Shown one piece after another: positions 1-43,867 of a DNA stretch of 46,363 nucleotides (position 1 is the first letter of the stretch; the number at the start of each line of letters is the position of its first letter). The notes below the pieces were generated by a model. The model made no database searches and had not been told where the DNA came from. It saw nothing but the letters and a program-made list of their open reading frames with translations. The stretch is from Nitrospinaceae bacterium (GTDB lineage: Bacteria > Nitrospinota > Nitrospinia > Nitrospinales > VA-1). The translations under genes were made by a program, and so were the position numbers. The DNA lies in NCBI GenBank assembly GCA_016763735.1, contig JAESTE010000117.1, positions 1 to 46,363 of the forward strand, written 5' to 3'.

Positions 1-1010
1 GGCGGGGCCGTGCAATACGCCTTGGTCTCGCTCAGGCCCCACGATACGCTCACCGCGGAACTCCCCGACATAACAGAGGCGTTGGGGAAAATGCCAGGGA
101 ACAGATAGCACGTGGGGAACGCACCCGCCGGTACCACTGCTCCGGTGGCAGGCAACGGGTTCACTACGTTGAAGGCCCGGGCGTATACCAGTGTGCGGTT
201 GTCTGCTCTGGTCACGGGCCTGGTGTAGTGCATAGGGGCGGTGGCGTCGAACTCGGGGCTCCATTTGTGGTAGATATCCCGCGCCCGCCCACTAAGGTCT
301 TCGTACGTGAAGTGTGCCCACACCTCGCCATTGGCCTGTGTAACGGACACACGGAAGTTGGCCTTGTGAGTGATCTCCTGTATGTAGGTCTCGCCGTCGG
401 CCACGTGCATCACGGTGCCATTGGCCCGCATCAGCTTGGCCCCGGCGTCGAATTTGAGCAGGGTCTCGTAATCAGGGCGGAGGACCGCTCCCACGTCGGC
501 AACGTTCGCGTACTGACAACTGGTGCCAGGTTGAGTGAAGGGTTGATGCCCAGTGGGTCTGAATAGAGTGGTGAACGGCGAAACGTCCTCGTGTGCATCC
601 GACGCGTTCATCAGCCCGGCGAAGTACTCCCAGGGCCACGGCAAACAGGTGGGCTTAGTGGTGGCCTTCAGCCCCAGACGTGTCCAACGGTACTCGATGT
701 ACTCGGCCATGTTCGAGTACGGGTTCACGTCCGTGAGGACTGTGCCGTCTGGGCTGGTCACGGTACGCGCAGGTAGCAAGCACATCTGGAAGTTGCGCTG
801 GTCTATCGCCCCCACTCGACTAGGTCCGACAGCATGCAGCGTGGTGAACTGTTGGTTCCACATACATGTTGCGAACGTGCCCGAGGTAGGCACTGTGTGT
901 TCGTTTGTCACAGGGTACGTAACAGACGGGACCAGGCCCTGTCCCAGTGTACCGAGGACGAATCCAGCCCAACACCACACCCACCACAGCCGCATTGCCC
1001 ATGTGTACAT
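1..1010 (-). CDS. Open-ended CDS (3' end lies beyond window start); predicted secreted/membrane protein
   Basis: Manual minus-strand translation in register with triplets 3-5 ... 1008-1010 shows no stop from 1010 down to position 3. It reads MYTWAMRLWWVWCWAGFVLGTLGQGLVPS...DGETYIQEITHKANFRVSV...AYCTAP. It is absent from the ORF track because it has no stop in the window. Plus-strand ORFs 228..566 and 553..1125 are its antisense. The N-terminus is hydrophobic and signal-like. The alternative ATG is at 995. Confidence 0.55.
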   Translation of the reverse strand, partial: MYTWAMRLWWVWCWAGFVLGTLGQGLVPSVTYPVTNEHTVPTSGTFATCMWNQQFTTLHAVGPSRVGAIDQRNFQMCLLPARTVTSPDGTVLTDVNPYSNMAEYIEYRWTRLGLKATTKPTCLPWPWEYFAGLMNASDAHEDVSPFTTLFRPTGHQPFTQPGTSCQYANVADVGAVLRPDYETLLKFDAGAKLMRANGTVMHVADGETYIQEITHKANFRVSVTQANGEVWAHFTYEDLSGRARDIYHKWSPEFDATAPMHYTRPVTRADNRTLVYARAFNVVNPLPATGAVVPAGAFPTCYLFPGIFPNASVMSGSSAVSVSWGLSETKAYCTAP

Positions 1011-1084
1011 GAATGTTTCGGCGACACACTTTCCGGCACCAATTGATACGTATAAATGTGTGCATTCATTAGTGACCATGTCCA

Positions 1085-4000
1085 TCAGGTGGACACCGCC
1101 GTTGTCCGGTGAGTCAGTAATTTAGAACTGGCCGAATCACTGGCTACAGGGTTGGGCTCTGCGCGAGGAGTCGGCGCAGGGTGTAGTTTGCGGTGGGCAC
1201 TACGCACAATCGCGTTGACGCCGAACAAAATACCAATGATGGCCCCGATCACCAACAACCCGCCTGCTCCGTAGTAGACCCATCGAGGGATGCCGTACAG
1301 CGGCTTGGTGGGGGCCGAAGTAGGGGCAGGGGTAGGTGCACTGGTGTTGGGGACCACCAGAGGGATCGTCACCGCTGCGATCGTAACGTTGCTGGTGTTG
1401 CACAGGTCGCCGATCCAGAACTCTTCGCACACACACGTCTCCAGGTCCGGGCGACTCACTGTGTGGTACCTGTCACACGCCTTGACGCATATCATGCTGT
1501 TGATGTACTTGCCCACGTTGGTGACTGGATCCGTCTCGTTTTCTCCGTCCACCCCCAGGGGATGCGCCACATCCGAGTACACGACTGACAGGAAGTCCGC
1601 CCGGTTGCACCCACACGTCGTCGGGTTGAGGTTGCCGTACAACACCACGGTCGCCTTGGTGGTGGCCTGAGGCTCCAAGGGGTGGGCCATCAGGGAACAG
1701 TTCACCAGAGTACAGTCGCTTGACATGTCGTAGTACGGTGGGGCACACACACACTTGCTGACAGTGGTGGTGGCCAAGGTGAAGGCCGCATCCGTGTCGT
1801 TGCCGCTGACGCTTCCGGTCAACAACAGGTCGTGGAACGCCAGCATCTCCACGTGTACCATCTCCTGTCGGGCATGTGGGGGCAACCCAGTGGACGCACA
1901 CACGCCGGTCAAGCACGTGGAACCGTTGTGCCCGGCCCAACAGTCGCAGGTCAGCACGTTCGCTGTGCCGACCAGTGTCCCGTTCCCGTTGCAGCCGGTG
2001 AGGGGTGTCACCGTACACTCCCCTGAACAACCGACGGACGCCGGCAACACACATCGCCCAGACGACACGTCGAAGTCGCCCACTCCACCGCAGTTGCAGT
2101 TGTATGTCCATGCGCCAGGGAACAGACATGTCACGCCAGTCGTACCTCCGCAGGGAACGGGGATGATGGGCAAGTCGGCCCCGCAGTGATTAAACCCACA
2201 GGAGGTCCCCGACCATCCAGTGTCACACAGACAATACGACAGTGACGTGGTGCCACTTGGAGCTCCGTAGGTCCCACACGCCGACGTATTGCACAGGTGC
2301 CCGGTCCATCCCGCGTAGCAATCGCATCCCCCGGCACGGACCCCCACACGAGGCGACCCTCCTCCGCACGCCGACACGTCGCACAGCATCCCGGTCCACT
2401 GAGACCCCATGCACGTGCACCCGTGTCCGCTGATCTGCGCCCTTCCGTTGGCAGAACACCTGGTCACGTTGCAGTACAGCCCTTCGTACGCCGCCTCGCA
2501 CACACAGTCCGTTGCCGAGTCGACGTATCTTCCGTGGACTCCGCACGCCTCGATACAATGACGGTACGTGGGGGAGATTGGGTCGGTGTCGCGCATCAAC
2601 GGGTACGTGCAGTTGCACCCGCCTGCTGCATCCGCCAAGGGTGCCGCCCCACCGCTCCGTACACACACGTTGGTGCTGCAGTTCTGTCCCTCTGCCACAG
2701 CATGCAACCACCGAGGTGTACATTGACACTGTGTCCCGTCCCAGTGCTGGCCCGGGGCTGTGCACCGCTTGGTGTCACAGAACGTTCCCGTGTACTGGCA
2801 TGGTTTGCCCCCTTGTTGGGGACACGACGCAGTATTGCAGGTCAACCCGTCGGTACTCTCTGCGCAGTGCATGCAATGGGGCTTGCACGCACCCAGACCG
2901 TCGGTGATCCAGTTCATGTTGGTGTGGGTGAAGGGGTTGATGGCCGGGGCGTACAATCCGCCCACCACGCCGCAGGTGCAGGTTGGCACCACCATCAGAC
3001 TGGGCTGGGAGGGGGCCCCGTCACATCGGCTGTACTCCCTCTGCCCTGTGATCACGAACCCACCACACTCGATCGACCCCGGCATGAGGGTGGACAGCGG
3101 GCACGCCGAACGGCAGCCGCGGTAGGGAAACACTGGCTTTCCATCTGTTGCCAACAACGAGAACGAGTCTGGGTACGGTACCGCCCGGTCGCCAGCCCCG
3201 CTGCAGTTGCAACCACTGGGGAGCAACGAAAGCCCGCCTGACTCGACGCAACGGTTGCGTGCGCAGTATTGCCCCCCCAACTTGTTGATAAAGAACGGAC
3301 GACATGTGCACTCGTCATTGGCGCAATGCCCCCCCACCAAGTCACAGTTCCCGCCACAGGCCTGAAGGTGTTGGCACACCACTCCGTTGTATCCGTGCGA
3401 GCAGGAACATTGGTACCGCGACTGGCCATTCAAGATGCATTCTCCGTGGTTGGAACACACGGTCAGGTTTCCGGCCAGGGCGCACGCCGACGCCGGGGTT
3501 TCGCATCTGTCTCCCACGTACGCTTGTCCGCCAGCCACGATACATTCACACTTGCTGCTGGTCGTGTTGCAATGTCCTGTTCGCAGAACGCCTTGCCCCC
3601 GTGCCGAACACGGCATGAAGGACGGCCCGCCACACGGCGAGTTCTGACACGTATCTCCGGTGGTCTTGAAATAAGTGTTGCACCTGCAGTACGGCCTTCC
3701 GTTGCGGTTTGTACACCCTGCCAGCGTGTCGGTGTCACAGCCCTTAGGGATGCAGACCCCTCGGTTGGAACACCAACTGTTCTGCGTGGGGTTCACACAC
3801 GAACCCGTGTAGGTGTTCTGGCACGTGGTCCCCCAGAACCCGTCGGCGCGATGGGTGGTAGTCGGTGGGCCCACCTGGTTCAACCAACACTCACACGTGG
3901 GGTCGGCCACGTCTCGGTTGCACACGTTCTCCCCAATACGGGAATGCCCGCCCTGTCGAATCAGCAACCCTTGGCACTCCTTTCCGTTCGGGCCATGGAC

Positions 4001-12089: not shown

Positions 12090-12470
12090 ATTTCGCCGAG
12101 GTTGGAAAAGTCAAGGTTTGGTCGAAGGTTTCGAAAACTTCAGAACGCGGTCCCTGAGTGATTCCAACAGCAAACGGTTTGGAGTCGACCAGATGAAAAC
12201 GTGACTTTTTCACTTTCTGAAATACTTGAAACTTGGAAGTATTTCTGAAGTATTGGTCAAGTATTTCGTACTTTCCCTCGAGAGACTTGACAAAAACTTG
12301 AGAAATACTTGACAAAAACTTGAGAAATACTTTGTACCGAGATTTTCCTGAAGTCCAATCGAGAGGGGGGGTAGGGTCTTGTTCCCCCCTAACCGATCGG
12401 CATCAAATCGGTGAATAAAAGATGTTCACCATTTGTGACAAAATAAATTAACCGATATGTCAGACTTTGT
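12090..12470. repeat. Left arm of ~1-kb imperfect palindrome
   Basis: The reverse complement aligns with 12632-13005. The core 12322-12400 is ~78/79 identical to 12703-12781, including matching G7/C7 and C6/G6 runs. The outer and inner parts are more diverged. The arm contains GAAATACTT/AAGTATTTC iterons at 12219, 12237, 12259, 12302 and 12324. Confidence 0.85.
12286..12329. repeat. 2 x 22-bp tandem direct repeat (CTTGACAAAAACTTGAGAAATA)
   Basis: Exact adjacent copies at 12286-12307 and 12308-12329, inside the left palindrome arm. Confidence 0.9.
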
Positions 12471-12631
12471 TACGGTAGTAGTAGAGTAGTGCAATGGGTT
12501 AGACATCCTAGACCCCCCCCCATCCTGTACAAAATTTGGGTATTAATCCAGACTAGTCTAGTCCTACTGCGCAAGGTACCATTCAAACATCCACCCGACT
12601 ATCCTGCAAACGTGAACCATACAATAGGTGT

Positions 12632-13005
12632 CACAGTTCCTGACATATCGGTTAATTGATTGTCTTCACGAACGTTGAACTTGTATATTCACCGAAAACC
12701 TACCGGTCGGTTAGGGGGGAACAAGACCCTACCCCCCCTCTCGATTGGACTTCAGGAAAATCTCGGTACAAAGTATTTCTCAAGTATTTCTCAAGTATTT
12801 TCATACTTTTCAACAAGTCCTTCGAGGGAAAACTACAAAATACTTCAGAAATACTTAAGGTTTTCAAGTTTCTGATCAGGTGAAAAAGTATCGATTTCAT
12901 CCGAGGGCTTACAAAACGTTTGCTGTTGGATCGTATCAGGGACGTGTGTTTGGTGGGTTTTGAAATCCTACTGGAAGACCTTGACTTTTCCAACCTCTGC
13001 GAAAT
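12632..13005. repeat. Right arm of ~1-kb imperfect palindrome
   Basis: This is the inverted partner of 12090-12470. It carries iterons at 12771, 12782 and 12848, plus degenerate copies. TTAACCGATATGTCAG (left) is matched by CTGACATATCGGTTAA (right). Confidence 0.85.
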
Positions 13006-13072: not shown

Positions 13073-13122
13073 GTCGACTAAGACGGACAAGAGTCGAAAA
13101 GTCGACATGTCGAAAAGTCGAC
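13073..13122. promoter_or_regulatory. GTCGAC-box cluster 2 (3 copies + 1 near copy)
   Basis: Exact GTCGAC at 13073, 13101 and 13117, with GTCGAA at 13093. The 22-mer GTCGACATGTCGAAAAGTCGAC is identical to 26851-26872. The cluster is upstream of the H3-like gene. Confidence 0.7.
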
Positions 13123-13229
13123 CTCCTTCCCCGGACGACTTGGCTCTCTGCACCCCGACCTGGGGGTCAACAACCTCTGGGGGACACAGTTTGAGGCTTT
13201 CTGAGGTAGTGGTGACTGCGTTCGTTACC

Positions 13230-13868
13230 ATGGCACGTACCAAGCAATCCCGTTCCTCTGCCACCAAAGACAAGGCTGCACTCCCCAAACTCAAGGGCCA
13301 CAAGGCCGGTCCGTCTGGAAAGGTCACGCGTTCGACAATCAAAGGGCCCAAGAAGGGGGCCGGGGGCAAAGGCAAGTCGGGCAAGGTCCAACACTACCGT
13401 CAACCGGGTGATGTGGCGCACGCCAAGGTCAAGGGTTTGGCCCCAGGCGAACCCCAGCCACGTCGCACCAAGGACGGGTTCCTCTTCCGCAAACCGCGCT
13501 CGCACCCGGGCCAGAGGGCCAAGCGGTTCATCAAGAAGCTCCAGATGAGTGTGTTGCCGGTCTCCAGCATGGCCGGGGCACGTCGAGCCTTTGTGGGCGG
13601 GCTGGTGCGCATCAACGCACTGAACATGCGCGTGAGCCGCAGCGCCATGGCCACCGCACAGGAAGCCGTGGAGATGATCTTCCACACCATCGCCACCGAC
13701 GCGTTGTTGACCACTGTGGCCCGAGGACAGAAGACCCTGTCGGTAGGCGACCTGGAGTTGGCCTTCATGCGGTACTCGAGGTCGGGTCAAGGCACCAACA
13801 TGGTGTGGCAAGAGTACCAGTCGCTCAACCCGGACGGCACGTCACTCCAACTGCGTGCGTTGAGTTGA
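13230..13868 (+). CDS. Histone H3-like protein (212 aa)
   Basis: The start was moved to ATG 13230, giving N-terminal MARTKQS (H3 has ARTKQT). VQHYRQPGDVA parallels H3 KPHRYRPGTVA. RVSRSAMATAQEAVEMIFHTIATDALLTTVARGQKTLSVGDLELAFMRY parallels H3 [50 protein letters not shown]. Confidence 0.75.
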   Translation: MARTKQSRSSATKDKAALPKLKGHKAGPSGKVTRSTIKGPKKGAGGKGKSGKVQHYRQPGDVAHAKVKGLAPGEPQPRRTKDGFLFRKPRSHPGQRAKRFIKKLQMSVLPVSSMAGARRAFVGGLVRINALNMRVSRSAMATAQEAVEMIFHTIATDALLTTVARGQKTLSVGDLELAFMRYSRSGQGTNMVWQEYQSLNPDGTSLQLRALS

Positions 13869-13958
13869 TCCAACTTGGGTTGTGACTTGGAACCCCCCGC
13901 CAGTATGAGTACAGCTATAAACACCTATTTGAATTGTACCTGTTGTGTGAGTGCCAAC

Positions 13959-14516
13959 ATGCCGACGGCACGTTTGGCGGACCGAGACGTGGGGTGGAAA
14001 GACAAAATACGGTGCGACCTGGCGCATTCTGAAGTGGTGGACGACCGAGACGTGGCGCAGTTGTGTTCCCGCTTGAAACGGGTGCTGGTGTGGCACGCCA
14101 AAGACCATCTGTTGTTGCGGGGCCATTGCCAACTGGCCGAGTCGCCGAACAAGTCAACCGACGGCTGGATATGGATCATCATCCCGTGCACACGACAAGA
14201 CAAGCAAGACGTGTGGGTGTTGCGCACGCGTCGGTCCGTGACTCAACGCATGGACACAGACGACGTGCGTACGTGCACCCACCTGCAAAACAATCGGTTG
14301 TGGATGTGGATGGTCTTGTTCGCCTGGGGAGTCCACCGTCTACAAGAAACCTTTCGGGTGGCGCCCGATTCACCTGACGCACGGCTGTTGTGGCTGTGGT
14401 CTCAAAACGCCCACAACAACGGGCTGGACTTGGTGCGGTGGGTGCGTAGGTGTTGCGGGGTACTGGCCCGCACACTAGACGTCCTGTGTTCCGTCGACCG
14501 TGGAGCTGTGGCATGA
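13959..14516 (+). CDS. Hypothetical Trp-rich protein (185 aa)
   Basis: The first plausible ATG is at 13959, preceded by TATAAACA at 13916-13923. No motif recognised. Confidence 0.5.
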   Translation: MPTARLADRDVGWKDKIRCDLAHSEVVDDRDVAQLCSRLKRVLVWHAKDHLLLRGHCQLAESPNKSTDGWIWIIIPCTRQDKQDVWVLRTRRSVTQRMDTDDVRTCTHLQNNRLWMWMVLFAWGVHRLQETFRVAPDSPDARLLWLWSQNAHNNGLDLVRWVRRCCGVLARTLDVLCSVDRGAVA

Positions 14517-43443: not shown

Positions 43444-43515
43444 GTCGACATCTCCAAGTCGACACTCACATGTCAACTCCGGCAGAGTCAGCATGTGTCG
43501 ATTTTCAGAGTCGAC
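43444..43515. promoter_or_regulatory. GTCGAC-box cluster 8 (3 exact + 3 near copies)
   Basis: Exact GTCGAC at 43444, 43458 and 43510. Near copies are GTCAAC at 43472 and 43524 and GTCGAT at 43497. The cluster lies between divergent starts at 43375 (-) and 43544 (+). AATGGATTTGT sits at 43404-43414. Confidence 0.7.
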
Positions 43516-43543
43516 ATCGGCAAGTCAACTCGCTTGTCCAATC

Positions 43544-43867
43544 ATGTCTGACCCGGCCCTGTCTGACTCGGACGCGTCCCCCAGACCATCGAAGCGCCGT
43601 CGCGCCTCGTCCAAGGCCTCGAAGCCCCGTGCCCCGTCCAAGAACGTGAAGCGCAAGAAATCGGCAGCCTCCTCCTCCTCTTCCAAGCGCGCCTCGAAGA
43701 ACGAACAGATCAAGGCAGTGGCCCTCACGTGGAAGCAACTACACCCTGAGTTTGTCCTCCCCAAGCTGACGGGCGACCATGCCTCGTTCGTGCCGGACCT
43801 CCAGGCCTTTGTGTTGGACTTGGAGCGTCATCTCAAGTACTTCAAGACTATTCTGCGCAGCAAGTAG
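43544..43867 (+). CDS. Small basic Ser/Lys/Arg-rich protein (107 aa)
   Basis: The start was moved to ATG 43544 (MSDPALSDSDASPRPSKRRRASSKASKPRAPSKNVKRKK...), because the upstream track codons run through the GTCGAC cluster. Confidence 0.5.
   Translation: MSDPALSDSDASPRPSKRRRASSKASKPRAPSKNVKRKKSAASSSSSKRASKNEQIKAVALTWKQLHPEFVLPKLTGDHASFVPDLQAFVLDLERHLKYFKTILRSK

Follow-up and report, generated by a model that had tools for sequence, protein, structure and literature searches.

The H3-like gene and its predicted fold

The stretch of DNA analysed here, hereafter the window, is the entire 46,363-nucleotide contig JAESTE010000117.1 (C84), which belongs to a 1.5-Mb, 192-contig bin filed as a prokaryote (Nitrospinaceae bacterium, GCA_016763735.1). 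At positions 13230-13868 of its forward strand lies an open reading frame (ORF) whose translation, referred to herein as P0001, comprises 212 amino acids followed by a stop codon and starts with MARTKQSRSS. P0001 is a histone fold of the H3 class, complete with an αN helix. The features on which the following sections draw are:

13230-13868 (+): coding sequence of the H3-like histone P0001, from the ORF, Pfam, the family profile against the PDB and AlphaFold2 (AF2)
13230-13247 (+): MARTKQ codons, an H3-type N-terminus with K4 that would leave a free ARTK(Q) end once Met is removed; kept in 5/5 family lineages
13233-13505 (+): basic disordered tail, amino acids 2-92, with runs rich in GK and without any ARKS (K9/K27) cassette, from composition and the predicted local distance difference test (pLDDT)
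13512-13550 (+): αN helix, amino acids 95-107, after an H3-type PG motif (P93 G94), from AF2 and the profile alignment to H3 RPGTVALREIRRYQKS
13569-13781 (+): histone fold, α1 (114-127), L1, α2 (137-164), L2 and α3 (172-184), from AF2, Foldseek and the residue map
13797-13826 (+): extra helix αC, amino acids 190-199, NMVWQEYQSL, from the alignment and the AF2 models
13073-13122 (no strand assigned): GTCGAC/GTCGAA array, candidate promoter element of the H3-like gene, from the sequence and repeat families D5/I14

An upstream in-frame ATG at 13107, which would give a protein of 253 amino acids, was rejected as the start, since it falls within the GTCGAC/GTCGAA array (gtcgacATGtcgaaaagtcgac, 13073-13122) and all four relatives of P0001 begin at MARTK or MARKK. 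A preliminary description of this DNA, made from the sequence alone, had pointed to an H3-like MARTKQS start with K4, to the lack of any A-R-K-S (K9/K27) context and to an expanded basic region between tail and fold. All three hold: MARTKQ is confirmed and its ARTK head is conserved in the family, ARKS is absent from the entire protein, and the tail before the PG motif measures 91 amino acids, with 17 Lys and 8 Arg, versus 41 in H3. The predicted isoelectric point (pI) of the protein is 11.5. The C-terminal extension of about 30 amino acids given in the same description is likewise present, with 28 residues after α3, but it contains a conserved extra helix and is not a loose tail.

The Pfam Histone profile PF00125 scored 27.7 bits against P0001 (cut-off 26.4) over amino acids 84-178, PF00808 scored 23.5 bits (cut-off 21.4), and a PDB search with P0001 as a single sequence gave H3 variants and HMfB as its best matches (E 0.01-0.05). 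When a profile of the five family members was used instead, the best 60 PDB matches were all H3 or H3/CENP-A chimeras, the top one at 4e-12, in an alignment that spans the tail and αN and continues through α3. Tested against single reference histones, this profile scored 40.9 bits with H3.1, 18.9 with HMfB and 17.8 with CENP-A, versus 2.7, 2.2 and -0.5 bits with H4, H2B and H2A, respectively. An identity as CENP-A (CenH3) was rejected on the grounds that P0001 has ARTK and that the profile prefers H3.1 to CENP-A; the L1 loop of P0001 is 1-3 residues longer than that of H3, with a sequence unrelated to the CENP-A targeting domain (CATD).

An AF2 model of P0001, built from a seven-sequence alignment, has helices at 95-107, 114-127, 137-164 and 172-184 and an extra one at 190-199, with pLDDT values of 79-89 in the fold; amino acids 1 to about 85 are predicted to be disordered, with pLDDT below 50 for amino acids 1-70. 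The top 50 PDB matches of this model in Foldseek were all H3 or CENP-A chains, at a probability of 1.0 and a target template-modelling (TM) score of about 0.65. A second AF2 model, of amino acids 84-212 alone, reached a pLDDT of 77. The H3-like histone fold with a recognisable α2-L2-α3 region that the preliminary description had put forward is borne out by the Pfam scores above cut-off, the match of the family profile to H3 and the AF2 fold, and the likeness to H3 reaches far past the first six residues.

At the level of single residues, HPGQRAKRFIKKLQMS in P0001 aligns to H3 RPGTVALREIRRYQKS, which covers the R-P-G-T motif and αN; G94 and A97 are the same in every family member, and A97 and R99 are the equivalents of H3 A47 and R49. 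Over H3 residues 44-131, P0001 is identical to human H3.1 at 20 of 87 aligned positions (23%), versus 55 of 86 (64%) for human CENP-A in the same columns. The H3 residues P43-G44, A47, R49, R69, R83, D106, T118, D123 and L126 are retained, and R63, K64, R72, K79, C110, H113, K115 and K122 are lost or variable in P0001 and its family. At the H3-H3' bundle, D123 and L126 are kept, H113 is replaced by Ala and C110 by Thr, and these positions vary across the family. The α2 chaperone-recognition site reads SAMA in P0001 and GATD, GALA, ASLD and DALE in its relatives, and is therefore unconserved. A quick maximum-likelihood tree placed the five family members outside a clade made up of human H3.1, CENP-A and 37 H3s from IMG/VR viral contigs (Shimodaira-Hasegawa-like approximate likelihood-ratio test, SH-aLRT, 90), in a topology whose branches are long and in which the exact placement of the family is unsure.

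Relatives, tail conservation and the H4-like partner

An exhaustive HMMER search of 1.84e9 representative proteins yielded four true relatives of P0001 and no more: P0003, P0005, P0006 and P0007, with identities of 29-38%. At E<=1e-3 neither a canonical H3 nor any other viral one came up. Searching IMG/VR with P0001 alone gave no close relative, and word-based homologue searches returned P0001 itself or the four known relatives and nothing further. All four relatives are encoded on contigs similarly rich in orphan ORFs. The H3-like proteins make up a small family that is conserved and has members only on related virus-like contigs.

Within this family the N-terminus reads MARTKQ in P0001, MARTK in three relatives and MARKK in one. 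The remaining tails are always Lys-rich and cannot be aligned with one another outside ARTK; ARKS occurs in none of the five members (0/5), although P0005 carries two AAKS. The codons for MARTK differ synonymously across the five lineages (Ala GCA/GCC/GCG/GCT, Arg CGT/AGA/CGG/CGC, Lys AAG/AAA), which argues that selection acts on the ARTK peptide and not on the DNA. Judging from these comparisons, the ARTK head is the one part of the tail on which purifying selection is visible, with everything else in the tail free to vary; the fold and αC are under purifying selection as well. The extra C-terminal helix is found in all members, with a [W/Y/I]-x-x-Y motif in which Y196 is invariant. Among full-length H3s on IMG/VR viral contigs, 37/37 start with MARTK and 26/37 have an exact ARKS, in a sample that is partly biased since MARTKQTA was among its six search patterns. 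Some of the IMG/VR contigs found with canonical H3 (L065-L067) encode multi-fold histones of a fused H2A-H3 type, whose C-terminal tails are acidic.

The initiator Met is removed before Ala, and the free ARTK end of H3 docks PHD fingers, WDR5, RbAp46/48 and K4 methyltransferases and demethylases. In one alternative explanation P0001 would be a decoy of the H3 tail, in which ARTK, carried on a long flexible tail, titrates or recruits these factors and the fold would be there chiefly to dimerise or to hold the protein in the nucleus. The conservation of ARTK as the only tail element kept over five lineages that share 29-38% identity, despite synonymous codon changes, would fit such a role, as would the lack of ARKS cassettes and the MARTK start of all 37 full-length viral-contig H3s, found even where their tails have drifted. 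Since the fold, αN and the DNA-contacting arginines (equivalents of R49, R69 and R83) are conserved too, as is the H4-like partner described below, and a pure decoy would need neither fold nor partner, we regard this explanation as quite unlikely; ARTK could also serve ordinary histone handling.

The preliminary description saw no H4, H2A or H2B partner in the window. None is supported there, but when the search for histone folds was widened to the genome bin one further fold was found, an H4-like gene on the sister contig C85. PF00125, scanned over the whole bin, matched only the H3-like gene, and Pfam does not detect the H4-like protein, which was picked by phmmer with human H4 (C85:51750-52469(-), equivalent to L073:17750-18469; 239 amino acids). 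Its single-sequence matches in the PDB are nearly all H4 (E 0.03-0.4), and a two-sequence profile of this protein and its homologue from locus L002 matched H4 chains only, at 5e-12 and over H4 residues 16-98. Its N-terminal region of about 145 amino acids is acidic and then SPKK-type, and its two homologues have a long region of the same kind.

An H4-like gene accompanies the H3-like gene in 3/5 lineages. In locus L002 the two lie 9 kb apart on the same contig, and in locus L009 they stand head-to-head, with the H4-like gene at 703-1503(-), the H3-like gene at 1610-2200(+) and 106 bp between them, an arrangement that resembles eukaryotic H3-H4 gene pairs. A promoter shared by the H3-like and H4-like genes was considered and rejected, the region upstream of the H4-like gene being without a GTCGAC array.

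These data bear on a second alternative, in which the H3-like protein is put into host nucleosomes together with host H4, as a saboteur or variant that reprograms transcription. Its H3-type N-terminus and αN would suit it to this task, the SAMA of P0001 is close to the SAVM of replication-coupled H3, and bracovirus H4 and pandoravirus H2B offer precedents (PMC9145170). The fold is only 23% identical to that of H3, however, the SAMA site is unconserved in the family, the H3-H3' bundle residues are altered, and the virus possesses an H4-like gene that is just as diverged, which points to a private pair. We therefore judge incorporation into host chromatin to be unlikely.

Neither H2A nor H2B was found in the bin, whose viral part of about 190 kb is incomplete, or in the related loci, and their absence is provisional. 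One ORF in the window, at 43493-43867(+) and 124 amino acids long, scored 11.9 bits with human H2B and was set aside as unsupported: it has no Pfam histone match, only about 55 amino acids lie beyond its basic tail, too few for a full histone fold, and no homologue was found in 5.8e9 proteins or in the related loci. This orphan has a Ser/Lys/Arg-rich tail and a short stretch, WKQLHPEF, that resembles α1-L1 of H2B, and a pair of GTCGAC motifs lies just upstream of it, at 43444-43463. Another possible chromatin protein was noticed in locus L008, where a 78-amino-acid gene at 2394-2630(-), at a distance of 4 kb from a relative's H3-like gene, has a weak Pfam match to barrier-to-autointegration factor (PF02961 SAM_BAF); its product may be a further chromatin protein of these viruses.

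Virus-like context of the contig

The window has a GC content of 59%, versus a median of 44% for the bin, and is one of seven high-GC contigs (C84, C85, C136, C81, C117, C114 and C91; 55-62% GC) that together make up about 190 kb. It is 92% coding and holds 34 ORFs, about 90% of them without a Pfam match; the few matches are to EGF, MORN, DUF2061 and zinc fingers. The sister contigs C85, C136 and C81 encode a TATA-binding protein (TBP; 7e-24), a peptide deformylase (2e-15) and a C3HC4 RING finger, as well as the primase large subunit (PriL) and leucine-rich repeat (LRR) and ankyrin (Ank) proteins; no DNA or RNA polymerase was seen among the 69 ORFs scanned. Mirusvirus core functions include TBP, C3HC4 RING, histones and Snf7 (PMC12768974), and H3 histone is a highly expressed mirusvirus core gene cluster (PMC10132985). 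The TBP, RING and PriL genes of the sister contigs fit the mirusvirus core set of PMC12768974.

The best PDB and Pfam matches of the window ORF at 24255-25589(+) are both terminase large subunits, below threshold in each case (4zni, E 0.28; PF03237, E 0.095) and confined to a Walker-B-like GLRGVTADIIVLEEAAHI segment. Of the mirusvirus virion module (HK97 major capsid protein, portal, triplex, protease and terminase), this sub-threshold match is the only trace found. The order of genes around the H3-like gene is shared with locus L006, which has homologues of the 448-amino-acid, 1329-amino-acid, 1000-amino-acid and terminase-like genes. The 1329-amino-acid neighbour was considered as a capsid protein and dropped, as it has no PDB sequence match. 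The virus-like setting implied by the earlier designation of the histone as virus-encoded is supported by the difference in GC content, the abundance of orphan ORFs and the TBP, RING and PriL genes on sister contigs. On this context the window is a mis-binned, virus-like fragment and not part of the bacterium. Its assignment to an uncultivated herpes/mirus-like DNA virus is plausible but unproven, since the terminase match is sub-threshold and no capsid gene was identified.

If the contig instead came from a compact eukaryotic genome or from an endogenised virus, the gene would be a fast-evolving cellular H3 variant. The eukaryote-like genes (TBP, RING, EGF, LRR, Ank and PriL) and the want of an identified capsid gene would agree with this. 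Set against it are the 92% coding density, the roughly 90% of ORFs without a Pfam match, the array-type, putative GTCGAC promoter motifs, the terminase-like Walker B and the equally orphan-rich contigs of all four relatives; moreover, no cellular H3 is known to be so diverged with ARTK kept, and the family falls outside the clade of eukaryotic H3 and CENP-A. We consider a non-viral origin highly improbable.

The DNA immediately left of the H3-like gene is rich in repeats. The array at 13073-13122, which is the GTCGAC cluster that the preliminary description had noticed by the gene, contains GTCGAC in three exact copies and GTCGAA in two, with a spacing of 8 bp, and lies 108 nt 5' of the start codon. 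GTCGAC occurs 47 times in the window versus about 15 expected from base composition, mostly in intergenic clusters, and the array is a candidate promoter element of the H3-like gene. At 12090-13005 there is a nested imperfect inverted repeat of about 900 bp, with inner arms at 12272-12417 and 12686-12831 (146 nt, 87% complementary) and outer arms that extend to 12090 and 13005. It is built partly of 11-bp periodic AAGTATTTCTC/GAAATACTTGA units and sits in a trough of 51% GC between divergently transcribed genes. This structure looks like a herpes-style origin palindrome and is compatible with the candidate origin that the preliminary description had set beside the gene.

Two further ORFs adjoin the H3-like gene. 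A 214-amino-acid antisense ORF at 13167-13811(-) overlaps it and is probably a GC-driven decoy. Directly downstream, a Trp/Cys-rich ORF of 203 amino acids at 13875-14516(+) has no homologue in the related loci and may not be a real gene.

Proposed function and comparison with known systems

Taking these observations together, we consider it probable that P0001 is a functional, highly diverged H3-class histone of an uncultivated herpes/mirus-like nuclear double-stranded DNA (dsDNA) virus of a protist, and that it pairs with the viral H4-like protein in the infected nucleus. The two proteins would pair as an H3-H4-type heterodimer whose DNA contacts are the Arg and Thr residues retained in L1 and L2 (equivalents of H3 R69, R83 and T118) and the Lys-rich tail. 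The expected site of action of the heterodimer is the nucleus of the infected cell, where it would engage viral genomes or replication compartments, and not the interior of the capsid. The conserved free ARTK end of P0001 may allow it to be read by factors of the host or the virus that bind the very N-terminus of H3, such as K4 writers and readers and RbAp46/48-type chaperones, and without ARKS it would be poorly suited as a substrate for K9/K27 heterochromatin silencing. The retention of ARTK together with the loss of ARKS suggests that the histone is still recognised as H3 while being a poor target of K9/K27 silencing. The changed H3-H3' bundle residues (H113 and C110) and the additional αC helix suggest a higher-order assembly unlike the canonical (H3-H4)2 tetramer.

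Several observations weigh against this interpretation. The viral identity of the gene is taken from its context, where the signal for a terminase is sub-threshold and no gene for a capsid protein was recognised. The Pfam Histone score of P0001 exceeds its cut-off by 1.3 bits only, the Foldseek E-values are weak (1e-3 to 5e-2), and the trimmed model of amino acids 84-212 fits HMfB, and then H2B chains, better than H3, a result that we attribute to the topology of αC. Several H3 residues that contact DNA or hold the tetramer together are gone (R63, K64, R72, C110, H113 and K115), which makes a canonical nucleosome-like assembly uncertain. The pairing of the H3-like and H4-like proteins is drawn solely from the co-occurrence of their genes, and the putative GTCGAC promoter array is not common to both, none lying upstream of the H4-like gene. 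Since the seven high-GC contigs, about 190 kb in all, are an incomplete virus genome, the absence of H2A and H2B is not established. Finally, a few further H3s from viral contigs (L050, L053, L059 and L064) have drifted tails that keep only ARTK, so this feature is not unique to the family.

The preliminary description had offered three functions for the protein, namely packaging of viral DNA, replacement of host H3 and mimicry of the H3 tail. Packaging would mean that the H3-like/H4-like pair condenses the genome within the particle, as in the Marseilleviridae and Medusaviridae. Histones of the Nucleocytoviricota belong to the virion and assemble into nucleosome-like particles (PMC9145170; Liu et al. 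2021, cited in PMC12768974), and the strong basicity of P0001 (pI 11.5) would suit such a role. Counting against it, H3-like and H4-like folds were the only ones found in about 190 kb, and the lineage looks herpes/mirus-like, with a terminase-type packaging ATPase that is itself weakly supported. Portal-terminase motors thread naked DNA; if the lineage uses one, its DNA enters the capsid naked and the pair therefore most likely works in the nucleus. We accordingly hold a virion role to be very unlikely, and packaging to be the least likely of the three functions if the weak terminase signal is real. Replacement of host H3 appears less likely too, because the chaperone site and four-helix-bundle residues are lost and the virus has its own H4. 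H3-tail mimicry is possible as a secondary role, to judge by the conserved ARTK.

Going beyond the pairing of the two viral histones, the H3-like/H4-like pair might build a private chromatin on viral DNA without H2A-H2B, either as a tetrasome or as an open-ended polymer of archaeal style, with αC as its cap or bridge and with a tail that is in effect 'silencing-proof'. We put this forward as an unlikely, speculative extension. If it were true, a private particle that recruits host H3K4 machinery through ARTK and offers no ARKS would be a counter of the herpes lineage to host silencing, and a deep-branching H3/H4 pair would bear on the evolution of the H3-H4 tetramer. An H3-like and an H4-like protein, so far without H2A or H2B, are in any case a two-protein system open to reconstitution; should the pair form a particle alone, it would be a natural H3-H4-only chromatin. 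More broadly, viral histones bear on the origin of eukaryotic chromatin and on the escape of nuclear DNA viruses from chromatin silencing. The present family sorts the parts of H3 that a virus keeps (the ARTK end, αN and the R49, R69, R83 and T118 DNA contacts) from those that are dispensable in it (the K9/K27 cassettes, the chaperone site and H113).

Compared with eukaryotic H3, P0001 shares ARTK, the PG motif with αN, the α1-L1-α2-L2-α3 order and the equivalents of R49, R69, R83, D106, T118 and D123; it differs in having no K9/K27 ARKS, a tail of 91 versus 41 amino acids, altered H113, C110 and bundle positions, and an extra C-terminal helix. Unlike CENP-A it has ARTK, and it is far more diverged (23% versus 64% identity to H3.1). 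Among the core histones it is H2B that has one extra helix right after α3, and the trimmed model of P0001 (α1-α2-α3-αC) aligns with H2B over about 86 columns at a root-mean-square deviation (rmsd) of 3.7 Å, in topology only. Since the family profile scores 2.2 bits with H2B there is no sequence relationship, and the likeness comes from a model built on a seven-sequence alignment; on that model, the C-terminal extension is like αC of H2B in topology and not in sequence.

An H3 in a virus is not new in kind, since virus-encoded H3s have been published for Medusavirus, Clandestinovirus, mirusviruses and others, and in the doublets of Marseillevirus (PMC9145170, PMC10132985). Like the H3 core cluster of the Mirusviricota (Gaia et al. 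2023, PMC10132985), P0001 is a singlet H3-type histone of what would be a herpes-like virus of plankton or protists. The histone orthogroup of the Mirusviricota is annotated PF00125 (Medvedeva et al. 2025, PMC12768974) and was compared with P0001 by description; mirusvirus H3 is described as phylogenetically distinct from eukaryotic H3 (PMC10132985; PMC12768974). The surrounding TBP, C3HC4 RING and histone genes match the published mirusvirus core functions (PMC12768974), with the membership of the window in that group unproven. By description, P0001 is set apart from mirusvirus H3 by its doubled tail, its αC and its co-encoded H4-like partner, and no paper in the literature searched joins mirusviruses with histone H4.

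With Medusavirus and Clandestinovirus (Mamonoviridae, Nucleocytoviricota), which are nucleus-dependent viruses of a different realm, P0001 shares the coding of a separate viral H3 and a very divergent H4. In a fold search of BFVD, the P0001 model has among its top matches the H3 of Clandestinovirus, which is likewise reported to have an L1 longer than that of H3. The H3s of these two viruses show 43-44% fold identity to Acanthamoeba H3 and keep most tail lysines, with K4 missing from that of Medusavirus (PMC9145170), whereas P0001 stands at 23% to human H3 and its tail retains only the ARTK head with K4. Both viruses also encode H2A and H2B, none of which was found in the incomplete virus bin of P0001; for the same reason it is a provisional difference from the virion histones of the Marseilleviridae and Medusaviridae that only H3-like and H4-like proteins, and not all four core folds, are present here. 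The P0001 family is far more diverged than the viral H3s described, and has a distinct architecture of doubled tail and αC together with a divergent H4-like partner.

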